From an uncultured bacterium (GTDB lineage: Bacteria > Babelota > Babeliae > Babelales > RVW-14), in the NCBI GenBank assembly GCA_903825355.1, contig CAIKAH010000002.1:15359-79358 (forward strand): a stretch of DNA of 64,000 bases, given 5' to 3'. Shown piece after piece: positions 10,236 to 62,066 of the stretch. The position numbers were made by a program, and so were the translations under genes. Numbering within the stretch: position 1 is the stretch's first letter; each line of letters starts with the position of its first letter. The notes beneath the pieces were generated by a model. The model was not told where the DNA came from. It ran no database searches and saw only the letters and a program-made list of their open reading frames with translations.

Positions 10236-13200
10236 CTAAAGCTCTGATGGGGGAAGAAGGTCTTTTGCTGTCAAATTATATTTATCTTTAATTGAGGTAC
10301 TTGCACCTTTGTCGCGTAAGAGCTTATAGACAGTGGTTTTTTCTTGTTTCCCATAAAATTGCTTTCTAACCGCTACATGTAGTGCGGTTTGTCCATCGCT
10401 ATTCTGTGTATCTATGTTTGCGCCAAGAGTAAGAAGGCATTCGGCAGCCTGAAGGGCGCTGTAATCAACGGCTGTCATGAGTGGGGTTTTTTTAGTAGCT
10501 GGGTCTGGCGTATCAAGTATATTAAGTCCTTGAGTTTCATTTGCCCATGTATGAAGCTGTTCAATCATGTTGGCTGGGTTATTATTAGCAACAATACAGT
10601 TCATTGCCCCATGTATTGAGTAGGTACTACCAGGGGTTGTGATAAGAGCAATAAGCTGTTGAAAATTGCCCTCTCTTATAGGAGTTTCTAGAATTTTTGC
10701 TTTTTCACGTTCTTGTTGTTCTTTTTCTCGTTTGATCCGCTCCTGCTCAGCTTCTTTTTCGGCTTTGATTTCGTCAGAATGTTTAGCACCACGACGCTTG
10801 AGTTCTTCTCTGATAGTGGATAGCTGCTCTATATACAGCTTTTTACTCGCAGCACTTAGTGATGGGCATAGTGTTTTGGGAGCGCTTACTGCTACATCTA
10901 ATGGGGTTTGCAGCTCTATGTTAAGGCTGTTTATGTCAGCACCTTTGTGGTCTAAAAGATAGATGACTTGATCTAATGAACCATTTTGTACAGCGCTATG
11001 CAAAACGTCATTTGCTTGCAAAATGGCAGATTCTTCTTCTGTTTGGCGGATTCTATTGATTCTATGGTTGATAAACAATTGTGCTGTACGAAGGTTGTTG
11101 TTTCTAATAGCAAGGTTAATTGGACTGACTCCGTCAAGGTTTTTAGAATCTATATTGGCAATTCCATTTAAATTATCTAAGACATATTTTGGCGTGGCTA
11201 AAGCTTTGCATAATGCTGCATAATGGAGAAGAGTGTTCCTATTTAAAGAGTTTATATGTCTAGTTGCATTATGAGTCTCAATAAGATTTTTTATTGTTGG
11301 TAGGTGCCCTTGCTCAGTAGCATAACACAGCGCGGGTACTTGCATGGTATTGAGATCATCTACATTGAAGTGATAAAATTCAATAAGATGAGAAGTCAGT
11401 ACTTTGTTGCCATTTGCTGCTGCATAATGCAATAGTGAGTCGCCATTATTGTTTCGGACTGATTTATTAGCGCCTTGCGTGATAAGATAGTCAATAAATT
11501 TAGGTGATGCGTTACAGCAAGCCTCCTGTAATGGTGTTCTTGGGCAACTCAATACAGGTCTGTTTAGCGTATTAACGTGAATATGTTGTTTAAGCTCTTC
11601 TATTGCATAGCGGACAACAGCTAAAGAATTACTTTTTGCAGCAAAATGAAGGAGTGTATTGCCATTCGAGCAAGCTGCGTTTGCAATAGCTCCTCGCATA
11701 TGTAGGTTTTGAACCACAGGAAGGCTTCCACTTTCTAGTGCGCAGCAAAGTAAAGTGTCTCCAGATTTGTTGGGAGTGTTTAGGTTAATAATTTGTCCTA
11801 ATGTATCTAAAACATAGTTGAGTGTAGCTTCAGATCTACTTTGGGCGGCAAAATGTGCGAGGGTATCACCTGATGTTGTTTTAACAGAAGCATCTGCATG
11901 ATATTTACTAGAAAGAAGTTCTATTGTTGCCATGTGTCCATGATGGACGGCGTTGCAGAATGCTGTTTTATTAGATTTGTTACCAGTATTGGGTGAAAAT
12001 CCGTATTTTTCGATAAGAAAACAAACAAGCTGAATGTTGCCCCATCCTGTTGCGTAGAAAAGAGCATTGCTGTGTGTGTGCATATTTGTGTTCATTGCGT
12101 TTGCTCCAGCATTTACTAGGAGCTGGAAAATTTCTGGTGAGCATGATTTGGCTGCAAGGAGTAATGGTGTGTTACCGCTATTGTTAGGAACGTTTAGAGC
12201 AGGCTTTTGGCCTAAGCTTTCCAGCGTATAACGAATAATTTCCTCTGTGTTACTTTGAGCGGCAAAGTGTAGTAGTGTATTGCCTTCACTGTAGTAATCG
12301 ATTTTTGCACCACGATCAATAAGATTTTGTACTAATGATAATGGTCCGTGTTTTAGCGCTGAGCAGAGAATGGTTTTTTCGCTATCATTTGGGGTATTTA
12401 GGTATGCCGCAAATCCGAGTGAATCTAAAACATAATTTAGCGTTGCTTCAGATTTACTTTTTGCTGCGGCTTGTAGTAGCGTATTTCCTTTATCCGTTCG
12501 TATTTTTGTGTTCGCATGGTGGGTAGATATCAATAGTTTTGCTAGTGATAATTGATTATTTTGAATAGCCAAATATAGGGGCGTTCTTCCTTTGAAATCT
12601 CTTGCGTCTTGCGTTAGCCCATAATTTGTAATAAGCGTAGTGATGAGTTTTTGATTGCCCCAGCCTGCAGCGTAGTGAAGGGCAGAGCTGTTAGTCTTGA
12701 CAGTTAGTGCTAGCGGATCGGCTCCTTTTTCAACAAGAAAGTTGAATGCTGCTGGTGAGCAGCTTCGAGCGGCTAGGTGAATGGGCATTTCTCCGTAATT
12801 ATTAGCGTTGTTAATCACTCTACTTTGTCCTAGTGCCTCTAAGGTATAGGCTATAACGTTGAGTGAAGAGTTTTCTACTGCATAGTGAAGCAAAGAATTG
12901 CCGTTTAAGCAGTTAGTGTTTGTGCAAATTTCTCGTGCTATAAGATTTTTGATTACAGGTAGGCTGCCAGATTTTAGTGCAAGGCATAGCAATGTTTCAT
13001 TAGCATAATTTACCATCTGGAGGTTGCTTATTTCTCCGAGGTTGTCTAAGACGTAATTGAGGATCGCTTCAGATTTGCTTTCTGCAGCACAATGAGCAAG
13101 CGTATTACCTTGCTTGTTTTTTATCTTAGTTTCTGCTCCATATTTACTGCAGAGCAGTTCAATGATTGAAACTTCTCCTGATTTGATAGCGTAATGCAAC

Positions 13201-15353
13201 GGTGTTTGGTTGTTTGCATCAAGAGCATTAACTGGTACGTGATAATATTCAATAAGATGATTAACAAGGGTAATGTTATTACTTGATGAGGCGTTGTGAA
13301 GTACGTTAGATTGATTTTGTGTATTTAATTTCATAGGATCTGCGCCCCTATTAACAAGGAGATCAAAGACCTTGGGTGAACACGTATAAGCTGCTAGAAG
13401 TAGAGGGGTATTCCCTTTATTGTTAGATGTGTTTATGCCAGAAGCTTGGGACAAGTCTTCTAGGGCATACCTAATAATTTCTTCATTATTACTTTGGACG
13501 GCAAAGTGTAGTAGGCTCTCCCCGCTCATGCTTATTTTTGTATTCGCACCACGAGCAATAAGATTTTGTACTAATGATAATGGGCCGTATTGTAATGCTA
13601 TGCACAGAGCAGTTGTGCCATTGTTGTCAGGGGTGTTTATGTGTGCAGTAAGCCCTAGCGTGTCTAAAACATAGTTCAGTGTTGCTTCAGATTTGCTTTT
13701 AGCAGCTATATGAAGCAGTGTGCAGCCATTACTATCTGTGTAAGAGGGTTCTGCGTTAGCGTTATGGTCTGCAATTAAGTGTTTTGCTGTAGAGAGATGC
13801 CTTGCAGAAGTAGCAAACCATAAAGGTGTTTGTCCATGGCTGTTAAGGGCATTTACAGAAATATGGTAATGATCGATGAGATGAGAAATAAGCCCTACAT
13901 TACCATGTCCTGCTGCGTAGTGAAGAATTGTTTCTAGTTGGTATGTTTCGGCAAATGGGTTTGCGCCAGCTGTAACTAAGTAGGTTATTAGTTCAGGAGA
14001 ACCGGCTTTTGCAGCAAAATGTAAAGGGTACTCTCCTGCTTGATTAGTAGCGTGTAAGGACGCAGATTGTCCTAGTTTAAGTAGTGCGTATTCAATAATT
14101 TCGATGGATTTACTTTCTACTGCAAAGTGCAGCAGTGAGTTTTCTTGTGAGCATTTGCTTTCAATTTGTGCTCCTCTAGCTACTAAATTTTCTACAAGAG
14201 AAAGTGGCCCGTATTTGAGCGTGAAGCAGAGGGGGTTGATTCCTGCATGCGTAACAGCATCGATTTGCCCAGAAAAGCCTAGTGTGTCTAATACGTAATT
14301 AAGCATATCAGATGAAGTGCTTTGTGAGGCATAATGAAGTAGATTTTTGCCTGTTCTTGTAAGTATATCTTGTCTTGATCCGTAGCTGATGAGTTTCTGA
14401 GCTGTTTCTAGATGGCCATTTTTGATAGCAAAACAGAGAGGGGATTTTTGTTTTTTGTTTAGCTCATTTGGTGAAAAACCACGCATTTGGATAAGGTGGT
14501 CAATAAGTGTTTCATTTCCTCCTGCAGCTGCATAGTGTATGACCGATTTTTCGTTTTTTAAGTTTTTCATTCCTAATAAAGCTCCATAGGTATCTACCAT
14601 GAGTAGAAAGAGATCAATAGAGCCTTTCTGCGCAGCTACATGGAGAGGGGTTTCTCCTCTGCAGTTGGGGACATTTATCTCCGCTCGCAGATCAAGCTCA
14701 TCTAAAATGTATTGTATGACCGCGATAGAGTTGCTTTTGACAGCAAAGTGCAGGAGCGAATTTCCTGTATCGCTTTTTATACTTTTAGATGCTCCATGAT
14801 CGATTAGTAAGCGAATGGTCTCGAGGTTGCCGTATTGAGCCGCAAGTTGTAGGGCAGAGTAGTTGCCATCGTTCACTTTGCGTGCATTAGGATTTGCACC
14901 GTCAATAAGTGCTCGTTCTACGTCAGTTGGATTACGATCGATGATAGCTAAAAATAACTGACTATCAAGGAGTGCGAGTCGTCTGCTGCTTATTTTTATT
15001 GGAGGTTCAATTTGATTTCCTGCTTCATCTGTCAAACCCATAGAAGTGCTTCTGCATTGTGGGCATCGATGGTCCATTTCAGCTGCTCGATACCCCTTGA
15101 AGCATGAATGGCAAAATGGTTTTTTGCAACATGCTGTGAAAGTGATGTTGCCTTGCTCTGCTTCTATTTCATCTGATTCTGCAAGGCAGACAAGGCATTT
15201 ATCATTTGCTATGCGAGGTCTGGTGTTTCGTGTAGAGATTCTATCGTCTTCTTCTCTGTCACTGTCTCGGGCATGCTTGTGTGGTTGACTGGCAGCAAGA
15301 GTACTTAACAGTCCGCACACAATAAAAAAGTTGATAAAAGTGATAAATTTCAT
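10236..15353 (-). CDS. Large secreted RING-like zinc finger plus ankyrin repeat protein (roughly 35-40 ANK repeats)
   Basis: Probable start MKFITFINFFIVCGLLSTLAAS (ORF track starts at 15416); CLVC...CCKKPFCHSC...CPQC; many G-TPLH-AA ankyrin motifs. Confidence 0.9.
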   Translation of the reverse strand: MKFITFINFFIVCGLLSTLAASQPHKHARDSDREEDDRISTRNTRPRIANDKCLVCLAESDEIEAEQGNITFTACCKKPFCHSCFKGYRAAEMDHRCPQCRSTSMGLTDEAGNQIEPPIKISSRRLALLDSQLFLAIIDRNPTDVERALIDGANPNARKVNDGNYSALQLAAQYGNLETIRLLIDHGASKSIKSDTGNSLLHFAVKSNSIAVIQYILDELDLRAEINVPNCRGETPLHVAAQKGSIDLFLLMVDTYGALLGMKNLKNEKSVIHYAAAGGNETLIDHLIQMRGFSPNELNKKQKSPLCFAIKNGHLETAQKLISYGSRQDILTRTGKNLLHYASQSTSSDMLNYVLDTLGFSGQIDAVTHAGINPLCFTLKYGPLSLVENLVARGAQIESKCSQENSLLHFAVESKSIEIIEYALLKLGQSASLHATNQAGEYPLHFAAKAGSPELITYLVTAGANPFAETYQLETILHYAAGHGNVGLISHLIDHYHISVNALNSHGQTPLWFATSARHLSTAKHLIADHNANAEPSYTDSNGCTLLHIAAKSKSEATLNYVLDTLGLTAHINTPDNNGTTALCIALQYGPLSLVQNLIARGANTKISMSGESLLHFAVQSNNEEIIRYALEDLSQASGINTSNNKGNTPLLLAAYTCSPKVFDLLVNRGADPMKLNTQNQSNVLHNASSSNNITLVNHLIEYYHVPVNALDANNQTPLHYAIKSGEVSIIELLCSKYGAETKIKNKQGNTLAHCAAESKSEAILNYVLDNLGEISNLQMVNYANETLLCLALKSGSLPVIKNLIAREICTNTNCLNGNSLLHYAVENSSLNVIAYTLEALGQSRVINNANNYGEMPIHLAARSCSPAAFNFLVEKGADPLALTVKTNSSALHYAAGWGNQKLITTLITNYGLTQDARDFKGRTPLYLAIQNNQLSLAKLLISTHHANTKIRTDKGNTLLQAAAKSKSEATLNYVLDSLGFAAYLNTPNDSEKTILCSALKHGPLSLVQNLIDRGAKIDYYSEGNTLLHFAAQSNTEEIIRYTLESLGQKPALNVPNNSGNTPLLLAAKSCSPEIFQLLVNAGANAMNTNMHTHSNALFYATGWGNIQLVCFLIEKYGFSPNTGNKSNKTAFCNAVHHGHMATIELLSSKYHADASVKTTSGDTLAHFAAQSRSEATLNYVLDTLGQIINLNTPNKSGDTLLCCALESGSLPVVQNLHMRGAIANAACSNGNTLLHFAAKSNSLAVVRYAIEELKQHIHVNTLNRPVLSCPRTPLQEACCNASPKFIDYLITQGANKSVRNNNGDSLLHYAAANGNKVLTSHLIEFYHFNVDDLNTMQVPALCYATEQGHLPTIKNLIETHNATRHINSLNRNTLLHYAALCKALATPKYVLDNLNGIANIDSKNLDGVSPINLAIRNNNLRTAQLFINHRINRIRQTEEESAILQANDVLHSAVQNGSLDQVIYLLDHKGADINSLNIELQTPLDVAVSAPKTLCPSLSAASKKLYIEQLSTIREELKRRGAKHSDEIKAEKEAEQERIKREKEQQEREKAKILETPIREGNFQQLIALITTPGSTYSIHGAMNCIVANNNPANMIEQLHTWANETQGLNILDTPDPATKKTPLMTAVDYSALQAAECLLTLGANIDTQNSDGQTALHVAVRKQFYGKQEKTTVYKLLRDKGASTSIKDKYNLTAKDLLPPSEL

Positions 15354-17116: not shown

Positions 17117-17137
17117 TTCTAGTTCCTTCTCATGTGC

Positions 17138-17214
17138 CCGCTCTTTCTTGGCCCGTGGGGCCGGCGTCGTTCAGAACTTGCGTTCTGTATTTCGACTGAG
17201 CTCAGGATGAGCGG
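17138..17214 (+). repeat. Structured palindromic element, long variant with extra CAGAAC/GTTCTG hairpin
   Basis: CCGCTC...GGCCC-gtg-GGGCC...TTCGACTGAGCTCAGGATGAGCGG. Confidence 0.85.
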
Positions 17215-17269
17215 GTTGTATTGAATTTCTTAATTCATATTTTTTGTTAACATGCAAATTGTTTTATCT

Positions 17270-17323
17270 CCGCTCAGCCTGAGCTTGTCGAATGGCCGAA
17301 GTCTGAAAGGCGAGAAAGAGCGG
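17270..17323 (-). repeat. Structured palindromic element, inverted partner of 17138 copy
   Basis: CCGCTCAGCCTGAGCTTGTCGAA...GAAAGAGCGG on + strand. Confidence 0.85.
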
Positions 17324-17331
17324 ATTGTGTG

Positions 17332-18084: not shown

Positions 18085-18408
18085 GGTAAACCCCTAGGGT
18101 TAAAAAATAGAAAAATAAACCAATAGCGCGCGTGTCGCCGCTATGGCGAAAATATTTTGTGGGAAAAGATAGCTCAGGAGCAATCCCGCTTTGAGAGCGC
18201 TGAGCTTATCGAGCGGTAATAATTACCGTTAAAAAGAGTTTCATGTTGGGCATCCTTCGCGCAACTGATGATTAATTAAGATTATTCAACTCTACCAGTA
18301 TTTTATTCTGCTGGCAACTGGTTGGATGAAAAATCTGGAAAAGCGCGCGTTTATGGGTGTTTTTGATGAAGTAGAAAGTTCTCGCAATGTCTGTATGGCT
18401 TTTATCCC

Positions 18409-18462
18409 CCGCTCATCCTGAGCTTGTCGAAGGACGCTGACCAAAGGGAGGTGGAAAAGCGG
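18409..18462 (-). repeat. Structured palindromic element
   Basis: CCGCTCATCCTGAGCTTGTCGAAGGACG...GTGGAAAAGCGG. Confidence 0.85.
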
Positions 18463-18480
18463 GGAAGAAATTTTTCTAGG

Positions 18481-18531
18481 TCGCTCTTCCACCCCTATCG
18501 GGGCGTGGTTCGACAGGCTCACCATGAGCGA
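18481..18531 (+). repeat. Structured palindromic element, TGGT/ACCA variant, inverted partner of 18409 copy
   Basis: TCGCTCTTCCACCCC-tatc-GGGGCGTGGTTCGACAGGCTCACCATGAGCGA. Confidence 0.85.
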
Positions 18532-18587
18532 CGATAAACCACTCATTAGGCGATAAATATTAAAAGTTCAACAGAGCCTTAGAAAAA

Positions 18588-23263: not shown

Positions 23264-23920
23264 TTGGGTGTTATGAATCAAAAAATAGATGCGATTTGTT
23301 TCCCCTTCGCTCATCCTGAGCTTGTCGAAAAACAGAACGGTAGTTCTGAACGACGCCCCGTTAGGGGTGGAAGAGCGAAGCAAGCATTTACCTTAGTAGA
23401 AATGCTAGCCGTGATTTTTCTTGCTTCGTTGCTGTTGAGCATGATTTTGCCACTGCTTAATCGCCGGCAAAAGCCAGAAGAGTCATGGGAAACACTCCAT
23501 GAACAGCTAAACCAAATTGCTTCCTTTGCACGGCAAGAAGCGCTTATAAAGCGCAAGGTTTATCGCCTTGTATTTGAGCAGGTGCCAAACCGTGAAGGCA
23601 AAGTGTTTGTTGAGCAAGAGCAGCCCGATCCTGAGCACGCAGAGAAGAAAATGTATATTGCTACTAAGTCAGATTACCAGCTTACTTCTTTAACCCTGAC
23701 GCATGGCAGAACCATACGTGCTGTGTATGTTGGTCGGCAAAATGTGCTTGGGGACCAGGAAAAGCAAGCATACTGTTATGTCATACCCGATGGCATGATG
23801 CAACCAGTGGTGCTGCAGATTGCAAAAAAAGATAAATTTGGTGAAGAAGTTGTATCGTTTCAGTTAAACCCCTTTTTGGGAAGTTTTAATCGCCATGAAG
23901 GTAAGTTTAAACCTGAATAG
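23264..23920 (+). CDS. Minor pseudopilin (GspH-like) with palindromic element in its leader
   Basis: A|FTLVEMLAVI prepilin motif; position in operon after gspG. Confidence 0.8.
   Translation: MGVMNQKIDAICFPFAHPELVEKQNGSSERRPVRGGRAKQAFTLVEMLAVIFLASLLLSMILPLLNRRQKPEESWETLHEQLNQIASFARQEALIKRKVYRLVFEQVPNREGKVFVEQEQPDPEHAEKKMYIATKSDYQLTSLTLTHGRTIRAVYVGRQNVLGDQEKQAYCYVIPDGMMQPVVLQIAKKDKFGEEVVSFQLNPFLGSFNRHEGKFKPE
23305..23380 (-). repeat. Structured palindromic element, long variant, intragenic
   Basis: CTTCGCTC...CTGAGCTTGTCGAA...CAGAAC-ggta-GTTCTG...CCCC-gtta-GGGG...GAGCGAAG. Confidence 0.9.
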
Positions 23921-29192: not shown

Positions 29193-29293
29193 CCATTTTT
29201 TCTTGTTTGTTCCTATCTTCTTGTAATGAGTAACTGCTTTTTGTTACGTCATGGTACAGATCTCATTTAAAAGTATAAGAAGTATTTACACAA

Positions 29294-29366
29294 CCGCTCC
29301 TCCTGAGCCTGTCGAAAAACAGAACGTAAGTTCTGAACGATGCCTCCGTAGGAGGTAGAAGAGCGG
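29294..29366 (-). repeat. Structured palindromic element, long variant
   Basis: CCGCTCCTCCTGAGCCTGTCGAA...CAGAAC-gtaa-GTTCTG...CCTCC-gta-GGAGG...GAGCGG. Confidence 0.9.
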
Positions 29367-29386
29367 CAACAACTATTAGGAATTTC

Positions 29387-42624: not shown

Positions 42625-42882
42625 TTAGGCGTGTCCAATGCCTGAAGAATCTGGGAGGCGGAAAAAGTCATCCCATACCTCTTCGTAATACTCTTCATAC
42701 TCATCTTCTTCTGCGTAGAAAAAGACTGGGTCATAGCTAGGCTCGTAGATGGCTTCGTACTCGGTGGAATAGGTACAGAGGAGGGGTCCGCTCTTCCACC
42801 CCTGCGGGGCGTGGTTCGACTGGCTCACCAGGAGCGGGAGGGTGCAAATGATCGGATTTTGTAGGTCAGATGGTGTGTTCAT
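42625..42882 (-). CDS. Possible small acidic Tyr/Glu-rich protein containing a palindromic element
   Basis: 85-aa ORF; biased C-terminus YAEEDEYEEYYEEVWDDFF; N-terminal third is the repeat read in-frame. Confidence 0.3.
   Translation of the reverse strand: MNTPSDLQNPIICTLPLLVSQSNHAPQGWKSGPLLCTYSTEYEAIYEPSYDPVFFYAEEDEYEEYYEEVWDDFFRLPDSSGIGHA
42788..42837 (+). repeat. Structured palindromic element, TGGT/ACCA variant
   Basis: CCGCTCTTCCACCCC-tgc-GGGGCGTGGTTCGACTGGCTCACCAGGAGCGG. Confidence 0.9.
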
Positions 42883-42992: not shown

Positions 42993-43048
42993 TATTTTAT
43001 CTGTTCAACCCGGTTTAAAAATACTTTTAGTCGACGATAATCGTTGCC
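42993..43048. repeat. 56-bp direct repeat, copy 1 (duplicate of 3' end of gene 44286..45041)
   Basis: TATTTTATCTGTTCAACCCGGTTTAAAAATACTTTTAGTCGACGATAATCGTTGCC; 2 mismatches to 44287..44342. Confidence 0.9.
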
Positions 43049-43055
43049 CGAGAAC

Positions 43056-44192
43056 CTATAGCGGCTGGGCGCCTTCTTGCAGCAAATCTAGATATTTTTT
43101 ATATACAAATTGTCGGTTGCGCTTGCTTCCTGTTTGTTCAGTTAATATGCCTGCCGCAACAAGCTCTTTAAGTACACTGTTAGCGGTAGGGAATGAGATT
43201 GCTAAGCGCTGAGCGAGTGCCGTAGCTGAAGTGAGGGGGTATTGTGGTAATGTTTCAAATGCATGCAATACGGTTGCGCGGACGTTTTGGGCAAAAAGCT
43301 CTTTCTTGTCCTGCTCAATGCATTGGACTAAGCTTGTAATACGCTGGCTAGCATCTTGTGCTGCTTGCAGCGTCGCATTAAGAAAAAAAGTAATCCACTG
43401 CTCATAATCGCCTTGTTCACGTACCATCATAAGTCGATCGTAATACTCCTGCCGTGCGCGTTTAAAATGGTAGCTGATATAGAGCACTGGGTCAGTAATA
43501 ACCTGTTTCCACTGTAAATAAAAGATAATGAGCAGCCTGCCAATACGGCCATTGCCATCGAGGAATGGGTGGATAGTTTCGAATTGGTAGTGCATAAGGG
43601 CGGCCGCAATTAGTGGATGCTCCGTTGCTTGATGCATATACATTTCAAGATTGCCCATTAATGGCAGAAGCTCTTCTGGAGGGGGCGGTACATAAGCTGC
43701 TTGCTCTAGGCTGCAGCCAGCAAAACCAATCCAATTTTGTGAGCGACGAAATTCGCCAGGCGTTTTATCGCCGCCTCGCACTCCCTGCATTAAAATACTA
43801 TGGAGTTCTTTAATAAGTCTAATCGAAAGTGGAATGGTAGCCAGGCGGCTATTGCCATAGTTAAGGGCGTGAATGTAATTTACTACTTGTTGTACATCGT
43901 TTACATGTGCCGGGACTATACCTTGTTCAAACGAGAGTAAACTTTCTAGCGACGCCTGTGTTCCTTCAATTTGGGAACTAAGTAGAGCTTCCCGTTTGAC
44001 GTACATTGCCAAATACAAGTCTTTATTAGGTAAAACATGCGCTTTTGTATTTAGCTCGTGTAGAATTTTTACGGTTTTATCCAGGAGTTCTTGTAACGAG
44101 GGTGTAATGAAAAGTGATGGAGGAAGGGGCGTTGGGATAAACGCCTTATACCCTTTGAGTTGTGATCGGTAGTGGCCTGAACGGGGAATCAT
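43056..44192 (-). CDS. Fic family protein (N-terminal Fic/DOC, C-terminal HTH)
   Basis: EALLSSQIEGT; HYQFETIHPFLDGNGRIGR canonical Fic motif. Confidence 0.95.
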   Translation of the reverse strand: MIPRSGHYRSQLKGYKAFIPTPLPPSLFITPSLQELLDKTVKILHELNTKAHVLPNKDLYLAMYVKREALLSSQIEGTQASLESLLSFEQGIVPAHVNDVQQVVNYIHALNYGNSRLATIPLSIRLIKELHSILMQGVRGGDKTPGEFRRSQNWIGFAGCSLEQAAYVPPPPEELLPLMGNLEMYMHQATEHPLIAAALMHYQFETIHPFLDGNGRIGRLLIIFYLQWKQVITDPVLYISYHFKRARQEYYDRLMMVREQGDYEQWITFFLNATLQAAQDASQRITSLVQCIEQDKKELFAQNVRATVLHAFETLPQYPLTSATALAQRLAISFPTANSVLKELVAAGILTEQTGSKRNRQFVYKKYLDLLQEGAQPL

Positions 44193-44285: not shown

Positions 44286-45041
44286 CTATTTGATCTGTTC
44301 AACCCGGTTTAAAAATACTTTTAGTCGGCGATAATCGTTGCCAGAGAGCAGGGCAAATCCATGGCTGACTTCTTCCAAAAAGCTGGGTGAGAGGAGATTT
44401 TTGGCCTTAACCGTCCGAATGACGGCGAGGAGCAATTCATCTAGGTTCTGGATCGCGTTAGAAAAGCCGTAGAGTACTTCTAGAAATTGAGCATCAGCAA
44501 AGAATTGTGTAGCGATATCAGTTGATGCTTCGCTAATGAATGCATGAATTTTTGGTGGGTTTGGGGGCACGGCAAAAATGATTTGTTTATTCGCTCTTCT
44601 ACCTCCTTCGGAGGCATCCTTCGACAGGCTCAGGAGGAGCGAATCAGCTGCATCCATATCACCCAGCTCACCAGGAGCGGAGAGTTGCATCGCTCTTCCT
44701 GAGCTTGTCGAAGGACGCGGCTGTAAGCCGTGGAAAAGCGATGCGGGTATATATCCACACGCTTGTACCGTAAACGTTGTTTTTAAAAAAGCAAAAATCT
44801 GTGGCTGCTCGCGTTCAAGTTCTTCTTCCGTTTTCTGGTAAGCGAACGGCGTGCGCGATGGATCCATGGAGCCGGTTTGAATACCGGTAACAAGACCAAG
44901 CACTTGTAGCTCTTTGTCTTGGATGCTAACCAATGAGCCAAAGGTAGGAAATTGTTTCCATTCCCAGCATTGAGCAGTGTAGTGGTCAAGCGAAGATTCG
45001 ATTACTTCAGCAAAAAAGGGATGTTTGTTTTGGCTGGTCAT
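44286..45041 (-). CDS. HAS-barrel-like conserved protein with in-frame palindromic insertion
   Basis: AEVIESS, PTFGSLV, EEELEREQPQIFAFLKT, PPNPPKIH resemble bacterial HAS-barrel proteins (recalled, not searched); about 50 aa internal segment is repeat-derived. Confidence 0.7.
   Translation of the reverse strand: MTSQNKHPFFAEVIESSLDHYTAQCWEWKQFPTFGSLVSIQDKELQVLGLVTGIQTGSMDPSRTPFAYQKTEEELEREQPQIFAFLKTTFTVQACGYIPASLFHGLQPRPSTSSGRAMQLSAPGELGDMDAADSLLLSLSKDASEGGRRANKQIIFAVPPNPPKIHAFISEASTDIATQFFADAQFLEVLYGFSNAIQNLDELLLAVIRTVKAKNLLSPSFLEEVSHGFALLSGNDYRRLKVFLNRVEQIK
44287..44342. repeat. 56-bp direct repeat, copy 2 (the 3' end of the HAS-barrel-like gene)
   Basis: TATTTGATCTGTTCAACCCGGTTTAAAAATACTTTTAGTCGGCGATAATCGTTGCC. 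Confidence 0.9.
44590..44643 (+). repeat. Structured palindromic element, intragenic
   Basis: TTCGCTCTTCTACCTCC-ttc-GGAGGCATCCTTCGACAGGCTCAGGAGGAGCGAA. Confidence 0.9.
44687..44744 (-). repeat. Structured palindromic element, intragenic, inverted partner of 44590 copy; partial third copy at 44664-44680
   Basis: GCATCGCTCTTCCTGAGCTTGTCGAAGGACGCGGCT-gta-AGCCGTGGAAAAGCGATGC. Confidence 0.9.
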
Positions 45042-45702
45042 GGGGCTCTACAAAGTTTTTAATAAAGGTTGTTCGATGAATGGCACAGGGTCCGTGCTCT
45101 TTGAGCGCTGCAATATGTTCGGCAGTACCGTACCCTTTGTTTTGCATAAAGTTATAGGCTGGAAATTGTGCTGAAAGCTCTTCCATCAATCGGTCGCGTG
45201 TTACTTTTGCAACAATTGAGGCCGCTGCAATAGAAGGGGAGAGCGATTCGCCATAGTTAAAATAATGGCATTCTAGGCCTGTAGGCTTTTCTTCAGCAGC
45301 AATTTTGAGCGGCATGGCATCTACCAGGACATATTTAAGCAGTGCGGGGTCGCATGGTAATGTTTGCATCAGATTCAGGTAGGCATGCTTCATGGTGAGT
45401 AGCGTTGCTTGGTAAATATTTATCGTATCAATGGTCTTGTGATCAGCAACTGCAGTTGTCCATGCGCAGTGCTCAGTAATCCAGGAAAATGCTTTTTCGC
45501 GCTGTGCTTTGGTCATTATTTTTGAGTCTTTGAGCATTGGCTGGTTGGTGTATAACGGCAGTATGACTGCACCTACGACTACCGGGCCGGCAAGGCACCC
45601 ACGGCCAGCTTCATCAATACCCATAGCACGTTTTTGCGTGGCCCAGGCTTGCGTTTCAAAGTATAATTTTTTTGGCGATTCTACGCTTCTATTCATATTC
45701 AT
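45007..45702 (-). CDS. rnhB: Ribonuclease HII
   Basis: GIDEAGRGCLAGPVV, LKDSK, VLVDA, SIAAASIVAKVTRD, NKGYGT; start reset to ATG 45702 because the ORF-track extension to 45795 is repeat and GIY-YIG sequence. Confidence 0.95.
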   Translation of the reverse strand: MNMNRSVESPKKLYFETQAWATQKRAMGIDEAGRGCLAGPVVVGAVILPLYTNQPMLKDSKIMTKAQREKAFSWITEHCAWTTAVADHKTIDTINIYQATLLTMKHAYLNLMQTLPCDPALLKYVLVDAMPLKIAAEEKPTGLECHYFNYGESLSPSIAAASIVAKVTRDRLMEELSAQFPAYNFMQNKGYGTAEHIAALKEHGPCAIHRTTFIKNFVEPHDQPKQTSLFC

Positions 45703-45726
45703 GTAAGCAACTAGTTTGTTAAGTCC

Positions 45727-45776
45727 CCGCTCACCCTGAGCTTGTCGAAGGGCGCCCCGTAGGGGTGGAAGAGCGG
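45727..45776 (-). repeat. Structured palindromic element overlapping GIY-YIG 3' end and providing its TGA
   Basis: CCGCTCACCCTGAGCTTGTCGAAGGGCGCCCC-gta-GGGGTGGAAGAGCGG. Confidence 0.95.
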
Positions 45777-46060
45777 GTATTATAAGTTTTTGCAAATGTA
45801 CTAATATCTTGCCATTTACCTTCTATAAGAGCACGTTTTTTGCTTCTACTCCATCCCTTTATTTGTCTTTCTGCTTGAAAAGCTTCATTGCGTGAAGGCA
45901 TAAGTTGCTGAAAAACTAATTGAACAGGCCGTCTACTTGCAGTCCAACAGTACTGAAAAGCCACGACATTATGCTCAGCAATTCTTTTACGCATATCATC
46001 AGTGTGCCCTACATAAAAAGAGCCATCGCTGCACTCAAGAATATAAACTGAAAATTTCAT
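45731..46060 (-). CDS. Stand-alone GIY-YIG nuclease (UPF0213-like)
   Basis: VYILECSDGSFYVGHT..MRKRIAEHN, RRPVQLV, EAFQAERQIKGWSRSKKRAL. Confidence 0.95.
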   Translation of the reverse strand: MKFSVYILECSDGSFYVGHTDDMRKRIAEHNVVAFQYCWTASRRPVQLVFQQLMPSRNEAFQAERQIKGWSRSKKRALIEGKWQDISTFAKTYNTRSSTPTGRPSTSSG

Positions 46061-46082
46061 TATAATTCATCGATAACAGGAG

Positions 46083-46132
46083 CCGCTCTTCCACCGCTTC
46101 GCGGCGCCCTTCGACAGGCTCAGGGTGAGCGG
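46083..46132 (+). repeat. Structured palindromic element upstream of GIY-YIG gene
   Basis: CCGCTCTTCCACCGC-ttc-GCGGCGCCCTTCGACAGGCTCAGGGTGAGCGG. Confidence 0.95.
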
Positions 46133-46394
46133 GGATGCTAATAACAAGAGGGTTATAATCTTCTAATTGAGCAGTAAGTAAAATTAATATTTAATCAAAG
46201 TTAGTCCTTTGTGCATGTTATCACACAATGATTTTTTTCTCATCTAAAAGGATTAAGACATTTTTTTGCCTCCATGTCACAAAAAATTTTATGATACATG
46301 TAGTAATTTTTTCTGGCTTTTGAAATGACGTTTGATTATATTATGAAAAAGTTATGGCAATGTTTGAATTTTTGGCAAAGCAGGAAGGGATTTC

Positions 46395-47066
46395 ATGTCC
46401 TCAACAGAACTTCGCGTAAAAGAGTTGCTTCGTGAAAGAGGCTGGACTACAAAAGTCTTAGCAGAAAAGACTGGCCTGTCTGAGAGCTACCTGACACACA
46501 TCAAAAATGGTACACGCCGGTGGAACGAGGATGCGCTTAAAAAATTGGCAACAGCTTTTGGGTCACATCCGGTTGATTTGTTTGCACAACGCAAAACACG
46601 TACTGATAATGTAGAAGCAAGCGTTAAAATGCCTGATAACATTAACGTTGATCTACAGCTTAAAATTGTGCCAGTAATGGGTGATATTACAACAAATCCA
46701 TCTCCGTACAACAACCAGTTAATGCAAGTAACCACTGGCCATAAAGATGTATTTGTTCCGGTTGCAAATAGCACCGATGATTCTATGTTTTGTTTACATG
46801 TAGAAAACAATTTGATGGCGCCGGCATTTGTAAAAGGTGATTACCTCATTATTTCTCCTGCCACCTGGGCACGTTCGGGCGATATTGCTGCGGTTGAATA
46901 TGGCAATGAGAATCCAATCAAAGCCATTATGCAAGTAACCTATATGGAAGAGTTTGTGGTACTTGAAGCACCAAACCATAAAAATCCACCTGTTGCATTG
47001 GTTCGTGGTAAAGACCACTTCCGTGTTATTGGCAAGGTAATTTATCGCTATCAACGCATGTTATAA
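46395..47066 (+). CDS. XRE-family HTH transcriptional regulator with S24-like C-terminal domain
   Basis: LLRERGWTTKVLAEKTGLSESYLTHIKNG HTH; FCLHVENNLMAP..VKGDYLII; VVLEAPN; VIGKVI. Confidence 0.85.
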   Translation: MSSTELRVKELLRERGWTTKVLAEKTGLSESYLTHIKNGTRRWNEDALKKLATAFGSHPVDLFAQRKTRTDNVEASVKMPDNINVDLQLKIVPVMGDITTNPSPYNNQLMQVTTGHKDVFVPVANSTDDSMFCLHVENNLMAPAFVKGDYLIISPATWARSGDIAAVEYGNENPIKAIMQVTYMEEFVVLEAPNHKNPPVALVRGKDHFRVIGKVIYRYQRML

Positions 47067-57865: not shown

Positions 57866-59057
57866 CTATGCCTTCAGTGCGTCATATTCGGCACCGCCAT
57901 AGATGCTAGCATCAACAGGTGGAAGGCCTAAGCGAGCACGGTTTTCTGCTACCATCGCATTTATGTCAGTAATGGCAGCGGCAGGTACTTGTGCTGATGG
58001 TGCAATGCTAAAATCAGTAAGTCCTAAGTTCCTGAGGATTAAGAGCTCAGTGAGAGTAGGATTGTTGCTGAGGTCAAGAGTAGTCAGTTTTGGGATATCT
58101 GTTGCCCAAAGGCGAGTTAGAGAAGGGCAGTTGCTCAAGTCAAGGAAAACAAGGTCTTGGTTGGTTGAGGCACAAAGCTGAATGAGTGTAGGAGAAGTGA
58201 TAGTAAGTCTACAATCTGCGGGAACATTTCTTATTTTTGGCAGCCCATGAGGAAGATTGCACAGCACTAAATCAATGATTAGTTGAGTTAATTCATTAGC
58301 GTTTGGTAGTTGTTGCAGGGTTGTGAAGTCTATAATTTCGTTGCGAAGCCCCAAAAAATCTGTTGTTAAAAAATTTGCAAAGATCGCTTTTACATTTACA
58401 TAAGGATCAAGGTTTTCATCTGTAAGATTATGATTTTGCTGCCACCATACAAAACGGTAAGCCATTTTGGTGAGTTCTTCTCCATCTGTAAGCTCAACAA
58501 AAGCAGCGCGAGCCTCGGCTAGTGTTTTGCCAGTAAGGGCGCGTTTTGCTGCATACAAGGCATCTCTAGTGGGTTGTTGCATAGAAATAATTTAGACGAT
58601 TAATCTGACATTTAAGCTCATCCTTAATTTCTTGATCAGCACCTGCTGCGATAGCGTTTCCTAGCCGCTTGCAGCGGTAAGCAAGGAGTTTTTTTTGACT
58701 GTCAAATGGAGTAGTGATGCGACCAGTTGTTTCTCGTGCGCGGAGCATAGAAGCGATATTTTTGCTGGTAGTAGGGCGAGAGAAAGATGCTGTTGCAGGA
58801 GCACTAATTGACGCTACTTCATCGTTACTTTCATCATCATTAATCGTGGGGACAACAGAAGCCATTTGAGATGCTGCAGCGCTGGAAGAAGCAGCCTCGG
58901 GTTCAACACGAGGTCGTTGCATAGGGCATGCTGGCTGTGCGTCGTAATCAGTATCTGATTCATGTTTTTCTTCTGCACACTCGCGTTTAGCAGCCTGGCA
59001 TAGGGGAGAGAGCGCAAGGCCAGCGGCCAGGGAAAAAAACATTAGTTTTAGTTTCAT
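57866..59057 (-). pseudogene. Secreted LRR paralog split by a +1 frameshift (ORFs 58566..59057 and 57866..58582)
   Basis: One extra base at about 58591-58593 relative to paralog 59842..60795; removing it restores QINRLIISMQQPTRDAL. Confidence 0.8.
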
Positions 59058-59110
59058 AATAATATCGCTTTGTGTTTCTAGGATATTTTTTGGTTATGTT
59101 ATTTGTGCTG

Positions 59111-59821
59111 TTAGCTAATGCAGCAGTGGCAATTAGCAGGAGCTATTTCTCTCACAGCTTCCTCATCTTCTGCGTCATCAGCACCGGCCCCGGCATGTCC
59201 TGCATCATCAACAGAAGTAAGGCCTGGGTTTTGGAAGGCAAAAAGCCTTGTGAGCGCAGGGCAGTTGCTCAGGTTAAGGGAAGTCAATCCTGGTTCGTCA
59301 ATGACAACAAAATCTGTGAGACTATTAGAAGAAATAATAAGATTACAATGTTGGGGTAGATTTGTTATCTCTAACGTCGTTTGACTAGAGTTGCATAGTA
59401 CTAAATCAATCAGCAGCTGAATTAATTCATGCGCATTTTGTAGCATTCGCACATGGTAAAAATTCAATGTGCAGCTATTTCTATAACTTAATACTTTACT
59501 AAATCCTGCACATGTTTCTTGTAAATTTACAGTGGGGTCAAGATTTTTTTCTCTTGGATGTTGGAGCCACCAAGCATAACGGTAGGCCATTTTGGTTAAT
59601 TCGTCTTCATTTGTGAGCTTAATGAAAGCATCTTGTGCATCATTAAGAAGCATTGCTTTAGGTAGCGCAAGAATTGCTCTATTTAAAGTGTTTTTAGTAG
59701 CTAATAAGCGGCTGGAAATGCTTGCAGCACTAGAAGCAGCAGCCGTATGGCACAGCGGGGAGAGAGCAAGGCCAGCGGCGAGGGTAAGAATCGTTAATTG
59801 TAGTTTCATAATAATCGCCAT
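59111..59821 (-). CDS. Secreted LRR paralog, shortened form, C-terminal CCIS
   Basis: Shared leader MKLQL.ILTLAAGLALSPLC; ELTKMAYRYAWW; LTSLNLSNCPALTRL. Confidence 0.85.
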   Translation of the reverse strand: MAIIMKLQLTILTLAAGLALSPLCHTAAASSAASISSRLLATKNTLNRAILALPKAMLLNDAQDAFIKLTNEDELTKMAYRYAWWLQHPREKNLDPTVNLQETCAGFSKVLSYRNSCTLNFYHVRMLQNAHELIQLLIDLVLCNSSQTTLEITNLPQHCNLIISSNSLTDFVVIDEPGLTSLNLSNCPALTRLFAFQNPGLTSVDDAGHAGAGADDAEDEEAVREIAPANCHCCIS

Positions 59822-59841
59822 TTGATTTTCTAGTTCACTTT

Positions 59842-60795
59842 TTATTCATCATCTTCTGCGTCGTCATCAGCACCGGCAGCAGCATGTCCTGCATCAGTAA
59901 GCGGAAGGGCTAAGCGAGCACGGTTTGCTTCTACTATCGCGTTTATATGAGCAATCTCGGCGGTATATATTCTTGTTCTTGGTGCAATCCTAAAATCAGT
60001 AAGAGCTGGGTTGTTGTCGACATTAAGAAAAGTGAGCGCATGATTGTTGCTGAGGTCAAGGGCAGTAAGGCTTTGGTTGTTAAAGGCAGAAAGATAAGTG
60101 AGGGCAGGGCAGTTGCTGAGATCAAGGGTAGTAAGGCCTGGGTTTTGGTTGGCCAAAAGAATAGTGAGGTGGGCAGAAGTAATAGTAATTTGATGAGAAT
60201 CTACTGGTATGCTTGCCAATCTTAGGAGCTTCTGGTCAGCCTTGCATAGGACTAAATCAATGAGCAGCTGAGTTAATTGATTAGCCTCTGATAGCCCATG
60301 AAAGGGAGCGAAGTTGAGTTTGTTCCTCTCGGTAAATTCTGTAAACACTTCGCTTAAATTTACAACAGGATCAAGATTTTCTTCTGCTGGGTTTTGGAGC
60401 CACCAAGCATAACGGTAAGCCATTTTGATCAATTCACCTGCATCTGAAAGCTCCACAAAGATGCCTTTGGCTGCATCGAGCGTTTGTCCAGAGAGAGCGT
60501 CTTGTGCTGCATCCAATGCATCTCTAGTGGGTTGTTGTATAGCAAATATTAGACGATTAATCTGCGCTTTGAGCCCATCAATAAATTTTTGGTCAACACC
60601 TGCTGTTCTTATAGCGTCTCCTAGCTCTTTGCAGTATCTGGCAAGTAGGCTTTGGTTGCTATCAGATGAAGAAGCTGCATATGCATCTTCGGATACATCA
60701 CTTGAAAAGGTTGCAGCGCTAGAAGCAGCAGCCTGGCACAGCGGAGAGAGAGCAAGGCCAGCGGCCAAGCTAAGAATCATTAATTGTAATTTCAT
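59842..60795 (-). CDS. Secreted LRR paralog, intact full architecture
   Basis: Signal peptide; CKELGDAI..QINRL; ELIKMAYRYAWW..ENLDP; 21-aa LRRs; ENRARL.LP tail. Confidence 0.9.
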   Translation of the reverse strand: MKLQLMILSLAAGLALSPLCQAAASSAATFSSDVSEDAYAASSSDSNQSLLARYCKELGDAIRTAGVDQKFIDGLKAQINRLIFAIQQPTRDALDAAQDALSGQTLDAAKGIFVELSDAGELIKMAYRYAWWLQNPAEENLDPVVNLSEVFTEFTERNKLNFAPFHGLSEANQLTQLLIDLVLCKADQKLLRLASIPVDSHQITITSAHLTILLANQNPGLTTLDLSNCPALTYLSAFNNQSLTALDLSNNHALTFLNVDNNPALTDFRIAPRTRIYTAEIAHINAIVEANRARLALPLTDAGHAAAGADDDAEDDE

Positions 60796-60827
60796 AATAA
60801 TCTCGATGTGTGTTGTTAGTTCACTTT

Positions 60828-62066
60828 TTATTCAATATGTTCTGCGGCATCAGCAGTCGGCAGTCCAAGGCGAGCACGGTTTTCGGCAACCATGTCGTTA
60901 ATTAAGGCAATAAGTCCTGCAGATACTTGCGTTGCGCCAATCTTGAAATTAGTAAGCAATGGGTTGTAAAAGGCATAAAGGTATTTGAGGGCAGGATTGT
61001 TGCTCAGGTTAAGTGCAGCAAGCTCTGAGTTGTTGCCGACCCGAAGCTCCCTTAGTCTAGCATTGTTAGTCACATCAAGTGCCATAAGCCCTGGGTTGTC
61101 GTATGCACGAAGGACAGTAAGGGCAGGATTATGGCTTAGGTCAAGAGCAGAAAGCCTTGGGTTTTTGCAAACATTAAGAAAAATGAGAGCAGGGCAGTTG
61201 CTGAGATCAAGGTCAGTAAGGACAGGGTTGCAGGAGGCGAGGAGGTGAGTGAGAGCAGGGCAGTTGCTTAGGTCAAGGGTAGTAAGGCCTGGGCTACTGG
61301 AGGCTTTAAGGTAAGTGAGGCTGCTGGATGTAATTTTAATGTTACTTTCCGGGGGTAAATTAATTAACGTTAATCTTTGTTGTACTGGGTTGCAGAGTAC
61401 TAAGTCAATCAGAAGTTGTGCGAGTTTGTGTGCATTTTCTAATCCATGAAGCGGGGTGAAGTTTATGGTAAAATCATTGAATTCATTGAATTTCTCAAGC
61501 ATGTCTTGCATGTCTATGGCAGGATCAAGATTTTCTGCTCCAGGATTGCGCTGGTACCAGGCAAAGCGGTAGGCCATTTTGGTGAGTTCGTCATCATCTG
61601 GCAGCCTTTCAAAGTCATAACGCGCAGCAGCAACTGTTGTGCCAGCAAGCACAGTATTTGCATCGTTCAAGGCAGTTTTGAATGGTGCTTGTTTACCGTC
61701 GATCAGTACAGCAATCTGCCGTTTGATCTCATCAATAGTTTTTTGATCAGCGTCTGATCTTAAAGCATCACCAAGCTGCTTGCAGCGGTGAGCAAAAAGG
61801 TTTGTTGTGGAACTATAGTGGCAGCGAGCAGGGAGAGTACCGGTTTGGTTTCTGAGAGCTAAGTGCCGAAAGAGATTGTGGGGTGGTTTGAGAAATGTTC
61901 TGAATGCGGCAGAGGCGGTATTGTTACTATAAGCTGCTGCTTGTGTGGTATCTGTTCGTTGGCGCGTAGCTCCTTTGCAGGCCGATGCAATAGCAGGACT
62001 GACTGTTCGGATAAGCTCTAAGTACTTCTGTGTATTTCTAATAGAATATTTCGCCGTGGTATTCTG
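60828..62066 (-). CDS. LRR paralog with the longest LRR tract; start codon unresolved
   Basis: Frame open from 62066 to stop at 60828; first ATG/GTG/TTG only at 61670, but family motif HRCKQLGDAL..EIKRQI lies upstream at about 61700-61800. Confidence 0.7.
   Translation of the reverse strand, partial: QNTTAKYSIRNTQKYLELIRTVSPAIASACKGATRQRTDTTQAAAYSNNTASAAFRTFLKPPHNLFRHLALRNQTGTLPARCHYSSTTNLFAHRCKQLGDALRSDADQKTIDEIKRQIAVLIDGKQAPFKTALNDANTVLAGTTVAAARYDFERLPDDDELTKMAYRFAWYQRNPGAENLDPAIDMQDMLEKFNEFNDFTINFTPLHGLENAHKLAQLLIDLVLCNPVQQRLTLINLPPESNIKITSSSLTYLKASSSPGLTTLDLSNCPALTHLLASCNPVLTDLDLSNCPALIFLNVCKNPRLSALDLSHNPALTVLRAYDNPGLMALDVTNNARLRELRVGNNSELAALNLSNNPALKYLYAFYNPLLTNFKIGATQVSAGLIALINDMVAENRARLGLPTADAAEHIE

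Follow-up and report, generated by a model that had tools for sequence, protein, structure and literature searches.

A GIY-YIG nuclease gene framed by inverted copies of a folded repeat in a Babelales genome, a candidate minimal nuclease-repeat module

The nuclease gene and its flanking repeats

The DNA examined here, referred to below as the window, is a stretch of 64,000 nucleotides (nt) from an uncultured bacterium of the Babelales lineage RVW-14 (contig CAIKAH010000002.1 of assembly GCA_903825355.1, positions 15,359 to 79,358), which we take to be a protist parasite and whose genome of 1.39 Mb is assembled in 57 contigs with a G+C content of 42%. On the minus strand, at positions 45731..46060, the window contains a gene encoding a single-domain GIY-YIG nuclease of 109 amino acids (aa) that belongs to the UPF0213/Slx1-like branch. 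As noticed in a first-pass annotation made from the sequence alone, this gene is tightly bracketed by inverted copies of a short repeat, which we term arms. The upstream arm (46083..46135) carries the repeat forward on the plus strand, hence in reverse relative to the gene, and ends 22 nt before the ATG, a distance originally given as 23 bp; the spacer between this arm and the start codon (46061..46082, minus strand) reads CTCCTGTTATCGATGAATTATA in gene orientation. The downstream arm (45724..45776, or 45777, minus strand) is forward on the sense strand of the gene and encodes its last 15 codons, RSSTPTGRPSTSSG, and the TGA stop codon, as had been proposed. The arms are 53 nt each and 92% complementary, with 306 nt between them, and the whole arm-gene-arm stretch comprises 412 bp. 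It lies directly upstream of rnhB, also as annotated.

From its sequence, the 109-aa nuclease appears to be intact. It is a member of the GIY-YIG superfamily, matching Pfam family PF01541 with an E-value of 8e-15 and a score of 55.3 bits (curated cut-off 22.6), and it retains all of the catalytic-core residues Y6, Y16, G18, R26, H30 and E64 that are invariant across a 22-sequence alignment. We equate these invariant residues with Y6, Y17, R27, H31 and E75 of I-TevI. The GIY-YIG domain occupies residues 3-75 of the 109, and the protein has the single-domain form and the size (~90-110 aa) of the Ssn-like proteins discussed below; its predicted structure is a single compact domain followed by a disordered, repeat-encoded tail. 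The nearest sequences of solved structure are the UPF0213 proteins BH0048 (1zg2, E=6.8e-13) and EF2693 (1ywl, E=2.5e-11), and a Foldseek search with the modelled nuclease likewise ranked 1zg2 and 1ywl first, with Slx1 next. Scans of the protein against NCBIfam, PADLOC and PHROGs gave no useful match.

Besides UvrC, the genome has four small GIY-YIG paralogues, three of which share the full layout of a reverse arm, 20-50 nt, the open reading frame (ORF) and a forward arm over or beside the stop codon; in one of these three the 3' arm has a 12-nt deletion. The fourth paralogue is decayed: its frame is interrupted by a stop and lacks a start, and of the two arms only the one at the 3' end is kept. 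Comparison of the units on contigs C2 and C9 reveals nucleotide homology that runs from the outer end of one arm to the outer end of the other, and since it stops at these outer ends, the duplicated entity is the arm-gene-arm unit of ~410 bp. The paralogous gene copies sit at non-orthologous sites. Terminal inverted repeats bound the unit in the form of the 53-nt arms, as they bound classical insertion sequences (IS) and miniature inverted-repeat transposable elements (MITEs).

The repeat is abundant and its single-strand fold is under selection

The repeat core, TCGACARGCTC, occurs nine times in the window, where 0.04 occurrences are expected and none of 100 shuffled sequences reaches nine. 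When variant cores are counted the window holds 11 full copies, i.e. nine beyond the two arms of the unit, in line with the first-pass count of nine further full copies. Genome-wide there are about 100 copies in the 1.39 Mb, while the control with a reversed pattern yields 0. Under a strict definition the number is 91, of which 48 make up 24 adjacent inverted pairs; 18 of these pairs are doublets in '-+' order, with lengths of 121-148 bp and spacers of 10-19 nt (52 nt in one doublet). Twenty copies lie within open frames of at least 200 aa.

Alignment of 35 copies from the genome indicates that the repeat folds as a three-helix junction, consisting of a closing stem CCGCTC/GAGCGG that is extended by copy-specific pairs, a variable hairpin, and a stem of 3-4 bp that closes the invariant loop T-TCGACARGCTC-A. 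Paired cells account for 97.7% of the alignment versus 81.6% in shuffles (46-57% in slid controls) and cells with double changes number 85 versus 23.3; these pairing and double-change values were matched in none of 500 shuffles. Covariation around the invariant loop is strong, and selection acts on the repeat's ability to fold when single-stranded. The triplets that flank the loop in 88 distinct copies are TCC/GGA (32 copies), TGG/CCA (29), CCC/GGG (17) and GCC/GGC (4), the other six being mismatched. One pair of the closing stem is C-G in 58 copies and T.G in 30, and because A.C is never seen, the folding strand is likely to be 5'-CCGCTC...TTCGACARGCTCA...GAGCGG. Both strands of the repeat are predicted to fold as single-stranded DNA (ssDNA), at about -12 to -14 kcal/mol. 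In the 3' arm of the paralogue on contig C9 (C9:3980-4020), exactly TCC-TTCGACAAG is missing, corresponding to the 5' triplet and most of the loop, and both stems stay. A literature search on the core sequence and on repeats in Dependentiae found nothing.

The pairing of nuclease and repeat extends across phyla

Homologues of the nuclease with 46-63% identity are present in many phyla, and 1161 clusters are found at E <=1e-10 among 50%-identity representatives. We examined the best 80 genomic loci of these homologues, which derive from Chloroflexota, Alpha-, Beta- and Gammaproteobacteria, Campylobacterota, Desulfobacterota, Myxococcota, Nitrospirota, Acidobacteriota, Gemmatimonadota, Bacteroidota, Fibrobacterota and Cyanobacteria. 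Of the 80 loci, 57 have the exact 11-mer core at the 3' end of the gene, 48 have it in reverse orientation no more than 200 nt upstream, and 45 show it on both sides. Its offsets from the gene are stereotyped, at about -39/-40 and -14. The counts bear out the expectation that homologues of this subfamily would be enriched for flanking inverted TCGACARGCTC elements, and the enrichment is strong. Many homologues end in a C-terminal PSTSSG or PSTGSG, which is the translated core. Across phyla the repeat can be written as NNN-TTCGA-(CARG or inserted hairpin)-CTCA-N'N'N'-YGA(R)CGG, and variants of its loop are TTCGAC-ARG-CTCA, TTCGATAC-hairpin-ACTCA and TTCGAGACG-hairpin-CCTCA. The loop-flanking triplets are perfectly complementary in 165 of 193 cores from loci of other phyla, where they fall into 11 types. 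Genomes of seven other lineages contain 16-252 copies of the repeat: three sphingomonads have 82-234, a betaproteobacterium has 156, a Myxococcales genome has 252 and several further genomes have 16-64, while the reversed-pattern control gives 0-1.

Nuclease presence and repeat number, which the first-pass annotation had suggested comparing, are correlated in 151 related genomes of the Babeliales. We took the larger of two pattern counts as the repeat load of each genome, and scored the nuclease as present when a close homologue was detected at a profile E-value of <=1e-28. A nuclease is encoded in 41 of the 61 genomes with at least five repeats versus 8 of the 90 with fewer (odds ratio 21, p=4e-14, computed without correction for phylogeny).

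Insertion events upstream of rnhB and within a HAS-barrel ORF

The nuclease unit upstream of rnhB is found in this genome only. The empty-site comparison suggested in the first-pass annotation showed the site to be unoccupied in 11 relatives, where both the gene and the repeat are absent from the 1.5 kb around rnhB. In the genome from the same genus, which lacks the unit here, the spacer between rnhB and its neighbour is ~5 bp. All assemblies that encode an identical nuclease protein represent the same locus, so that their comparison yielded no polymorphism.

A second insertion is a gene-less '+-' doublet (44589..44744, with arms at 44589-44644 on the plus strand and 44687-44744 on the minus strand) that lies in frame within the HAS-barrel ORF at 44286-45041, where it constitutes an insert of ~50 aa. 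This insert is shared with the same-genus genome, while HAS-barrel orthologues from ten other genera of the family are without it. The two genomes that carry the insert translate it in partly different frames.

Relation to the Ssn/NTS systems

The Ssn family (cd10448), which includes SsnA of Neisseria meningitidis, was described recently as a group of GIY-YIG proteins of ~94 aa, with NTS/SRM hairpin repeats framing their genes (Chenal et al., 2025, Nat Commun; PMC11893778). Four purified members cut ssDNA specifically beside their own repeat and did not act on double-stranded DNA or RNA, and the authors regarded the layout as IS-like, comparing it with REP (repetitive extragenic palindromic) elements and their REP-associated tyrosine transposases (RAYTs) (PMC11893778). 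The notion that a nuclease spreads hairpins, proposed in the first-pass annotation together with the REP/RAYT analogy, thus has a published sister, and the idea of a tiny nuclease with its repeats is not in itself new. The system described here resembles Ssn/NTS in having a single-domain GIY-YIG protein of ~95-110 aa, a gene framed on both sides by inverted, GC-rich, hairpin-forming repeats, tens to hundreds of repeat copies that are often arranged as inverted pairs, and an enrichment in symbionts and intracellular bacteria. The repeats themselves differ, since that of Ssn is a simple hairpin with a 5' GTC, whereas the one found here is a three-helix junction with an invariant loop of 11-13 nt.

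The original study delimits the Ssn clade by assignment to cd10448 and by E<1e-10 to N. meningitidis SsnA; here, NTS/SRM-flanked proteins of Rhizorhabdus, Sphingomonas and Babeliales served as stand-ins for SsnA and the CDD family. Between the 109-aa protein and one such NTS-flanked protein the identity is only 29%. A profile of its clade assigns 122-144 bits to its own members, 64-81 to Firmicute UPF0213 proteins of the YazA type, 39-67 to Ssn-type proteins and 45 to YhbQ. In a maximum-likelihood tree the Ssn-type stand-ins form a separate clade on a long branch with 100/100 support, and the nuclease clade groups with UPF0213 on the opposite side from that branch; judged on these NTS-flanked stand-ins, the nuclease lies outside the Ssn clade. 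UPF0213 is the nearest group by sequence, Foldseek ranking, profile bits and tree alike. The published SRM motif, HGTCWYN(0-2)YYVSBRHN(0-5)WNVSBRGN(0-2)RNCYNB, has four matches in the whole genome (2-6 in shuffles), none of which overlaps a repeat or lies within 60 nt of one, and the NTS pattern has no match genome-wide. The SRM motif is likewise absent from ten Babeliales loci of the nuclease clade and is matched five times in the 441 kb of the 80 cross-phylum loci (L001-L080). No NTS-framed Ssn-type gene was found in the genome under study.

Babeliales and sphingomonads contain two separate pairs, one of Ssn-type proteins with NTS-like hairpins and the other of the nuclease clade with the TTCGA...CTCA repeat. 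The ten Babeliales loci of the nuclease's own clade carry the latter repeat, two of them without a recognisable upstream arm, and in ten Babeliales loci of the Ssn-type clade its place is taken by NTS-like hairpins, so the pairing of nuclease and repeat type is clade-specific. In the Ssn-type loci (L116-L125; genomes G134, G031, G071, G062, G148, G141, G036 and G026) we observed CGTC[AG]TYCC...GGRATCCAG upstream of the gene and its complement downstream; only two of the ten match the strict SRM pattern. As far as sequence comparison can place it, with another enzyme branch and another repeat fold, the nuclease/repeat system is a distinct sister of Ssn/NTS.

Relation to other enzymes and repeat families

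UPF0213, YazA and YhbQ proteins (PDB 1zg2, 1ywl) share the single-domain GIY-YIG fold of the nuclease and are its best matches in sequence and fold. They are bacterial relatives of Slx1, a structure-specific endonuclease, and Slx1, YhbQ and YazA have been handled as one family (PMC7017083). YhbQ carries the annotation of a DNA damage response nuclease. The genomic setting is different, since YazA and its Firmicute relatives are single-copy resident genes in a conserved trmNF-yazA-rsmI operon, where there is no room for flanking repeats because the reading frames overlap neighbouring genes.

The likeness to REP/REPIN-RAYT systems comprises short GC-rich palindromic repeats, inverted doublets, an enzyme gene framed by the repeats, inferred recognition of ssDNA and the lack of a target-site duplication, but RAYTs are HUH-Y1 enzymes and the enzyme here is a GIY-YIG protein. 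No Y1 or RAYT gene is present in the window, as the first-pass annotation had stated, and PF01797 has a single match in the genome, to an IS200-like fragment (C7:992-1210) that is broken, being interrupted by an in-frame TAG and truncated at its end; it lies on a 5.4-kb contig in which no repeats were found. Repeat-rich genomes that lack the nuclease and rely on a RAYT, which would have spoken against a nuclease partner, did not emerge either: nine of the 12 repeat-rich, nuclease-less genomes are without any Y1 gene, and in the other three the Y1 genes are not framed by the repeat. We therefore rejected a RAYT as the real mobiliser, given that Y1 genes neither co-occur with the repeat nor lie framed by it.

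By description, the Rickettsia palindromic elements (RPEs) are also comparable, since they too are small and palindromic, belong to an intracellular bacterium and interrupt protein-coding genes without breaking the frame; we know of no partner enzyme established for them. IS200/IS605 elements are alike in that their hairpin ends are recognised as ssDNA, as may be the case here, and in the lack of target duplication. They differ in having asymmetric ends on one strand and a lagging-strand bias, whereas the ends found here are symmetric and inverted, and strand bias is lacking.

Neighbouring genes and further repeat copies in the window

Directly downstream of the nuclease unit lies rnhB (RNase HII, PF01351; 45007..45693, minus strand), given here as context only. 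Its longest frame, from a TTG at 45795, merely reads across the repeat arm (45694-45795), and alignment with orthologues places the true start at an ATG near 45693 (MNMNRS...). The divergent neighbour of the unit is a LexA-like gene (HTH_3 and Peptidase_S24; 46395-47066). A 61-nt direct repeat with 95% identity (42993-43053 and 44287-44347) is located on both sides of a Fic gene (43056-44192) and corresponds to the 3' end of the HAS-barrel ORF. Since this gene end is repeated on either side, the Fic gene may have been inserted together with a duplicate of it; the genome from the same genus likewise has a second copy of the last 31 HAS-barrel codons.

A single copy of the repeat on the plus strand (42787..42838) has the core TTCGACTGGCTCA and the flanking triplets TGG/CCA. 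Two copies on the minus strand are of a long form (29293..29367 and 23305..23380), the first with an additional CAGAAC...GTTCTG hairpin ahead of the core. At 17137..17324 a long-form copy (17137-17216, plus strand) and a further copy (17268-17324, minus strand) make up a '+-' pair. The '-+' doublet at 18405..18532 has arms at 18405-18466 (minus strand) and 18480-18532 (plus strand) with a 13-nt spacer, and is heterotypic, with the triplets TCC/GGA and TGG/CCA. A heterotypic doublet also occurs in a Campylobacterota genome, that of a Sulfuricurvum (G159, C12:91296-91358), where CCA is found with GGG; given such heterotypic triplets, a doublet folded as one long hairpin would have mismatch bubbles beside the core. 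Elsewhere in the window, large genes contain long arrays of diverged internal repeats (11197-14768 and 58007-61800, with units of ~100-200 nt and 66 nt).

Discussion

The suggestion made in the first-pass annotation, that this nuclease and its flanking elements work together, is partly supported, in that the tests run favour a specific partnership between nuclease and repeat; its alternative, a structured RNA acting with the nuclease, found no support in this analysis. We consider that the 412-bp stretch is probably, at a rough probability of 0.68, a module of a nuclease and its cognate repeat, in which the nuclease would nick the folded repeat and so move both the unit and the gene-less copies. 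By analogy with the enzymology of the Ssn proteins and with the preference of Slx1 for structured DNA, the nuclease may bind the repeat as folded ssDNA, which could become accessible at replication forks, in the course of repair or through extrusion of a cruciform, and may nick it at or beside the invariant loop. Such a nick would drive the copying or relocation of the whole arm-gene-arm unit and, in trans, would also move gene-less singlets and inverted doublets in the manner of REPINs or MITEs. Of such copies the genome now has ~100, some of them in frame within genes.

Several observations weigh against this interpretation. The role demonstrated for SsnA in Neisseria is the modulation of transformation, not the movement of repeats (PMC11893778). 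No direct target-site duplication was detected at the ends of the unit or of the 24 adjacent inverted pairs, no conserved insertion site or flanking motif was found around the repeats, and no preference for either replication strand was seen among single copies (19 versus 18), in contrast to IS200/IS605. A search among partial copies for recurrent breakpoints that could point to a cleavage site revealed none, only point-mutated copies and contig ends. The empty rnhB site is inexact at the base level, with 22 and 76 extra nt on its two sides in this genome and diverged intergenic flanks. Doublet arms are usually heterotypic in their triplets while those of intact gene-bearing units are homotypic, and because of this difference the doublets are not simple deletion derivatives of present-day units. 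The association across the Babeliales, whose odds ratio is not corrected for phylogeny, has exceptions in both directions: 12 of the 151 genomes, the same-genus genome among them, have at least ten repeats and no cognate nuclease, and eight have the nuclease with fewer than five repeats.

Some of these points would also fit a domesticated host nuclease, an interpretation already put forward for SsnA in Neisseria, for which the repeats would be recognition sites in ssDNA processing during recombination, DNA uptake or fork repair, and would have spread through recombination or another agent. The transformation role of SsnA is in keeping with this, as are the repeat-rich genomes without the nuclease, the lack of target-site duplications and the LexA-like divergent neighbour; moreover, YazA and YhbQ, from the same branch, are stable single-copy genes, the former in an operon of overlapping frames and the latter with its DNA-damage annotation. 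We nevertheless think this explanation unlikely, since the nuclease gene is multi-copy (four, one decayed), occupies non-orthologous sites and shows homology between copies that ends exactly where the arms end, 11 relatives have nothing at the rnhB site, and the arm-gene-arm arrangement recurs with the same junctions in distant phyla, so that it looks like a transferable module and not a resident gene.

GIY-YIG enzymes include classical homing endonucleases, and the gene might accordingly be a free-standing homing-type endonuclease gene that inserts into a repeat or the centre of a doublet, with the repeats as its landing sites and not its cargo. The gene does lie between inverted arms in the '- then +' order seen in gene-less doublets, and the protein has a match to TIGR01453, albeit a weak one (E=0.012). 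With only ~95 structured residues, however, it lacks a DNA-binding extension of the kind that known GIY-YIG homing enzymes need; a comparison of doublet spacers with the inner flanks of the unit revealed no similarity, and the heterotypic doublet arms contrast with the homotypic arms of the unit. Nor would a pure passenger model predict that genomes with the nuclease have more repeats, as is observed, and we regard homing as improbable. Less probable still, to the extent that we give it very little weight, is a role of the repeat as structured RNA, be it as a 3'-end stabiliser, a terminator, a processing site or an RNA partner of the enzyme, with the placement of the arms around the gene due to regulation or to that partnership. 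The covariation demonstrates single-strand folding only, for which RNA would serve as well as DNA, and at the 3' end of the nuclease gene it is the sense strand that tolerates wobble, but in the upstream arm the mRNA strand has the non-wobble orientation, and copies occur in both orientations, within coding frames and as inverted pairs. A search of Rfam with the repeat, at gathering and permissive thresholds, gave no relevant family, no terminator-like T-run was found 3' of the repeats, and Ssn enzymes neither bound nor cut RNA.

The module extends the Ssn principle, a tiny nuclease with hairpin repeats of its own, to a second branch of GIY-YIG enzymes, with a more elaborate repeat fold that is invisible to the published motif. 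It provides a proposed partner enzyme for a very common repeat that seemingly has no name in the literature; translations of its core, among them PSTSSG and LRQAQGER, can be seen in many database proteins. For the UPF0213/YazA/YhbQ family, which is poorly understood, it yields the hypothesis that its members recognise a structured single strand and, if the predicted cleavage is true, the ssDNA-cutting tools proposed for Ssn would gain a new specificity for both sequence and structure. We can envisage, although at present it is a tentative and rather doubtful generalisation, a general class of mobile elements of minimal size, pairing single-domain GIY-YIG nucleases with structured ssDNA repeats and comprising two or more enzyme branches (Ssn and UPF0213-like). 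In the latter branch a protein of ~100 aa would itself mobilise a repeat family with tens to hundreds of copies per genome in bacteria from Dependentiae to Myxococcota, Chloroflexota and Proteobacteria, and from such elements YazA and YhbQ would be domesticated descendants. For the Dependentiae, the repeats mean that reduced genomes have been reshaped, including by in-frame insertions in conserved genes.

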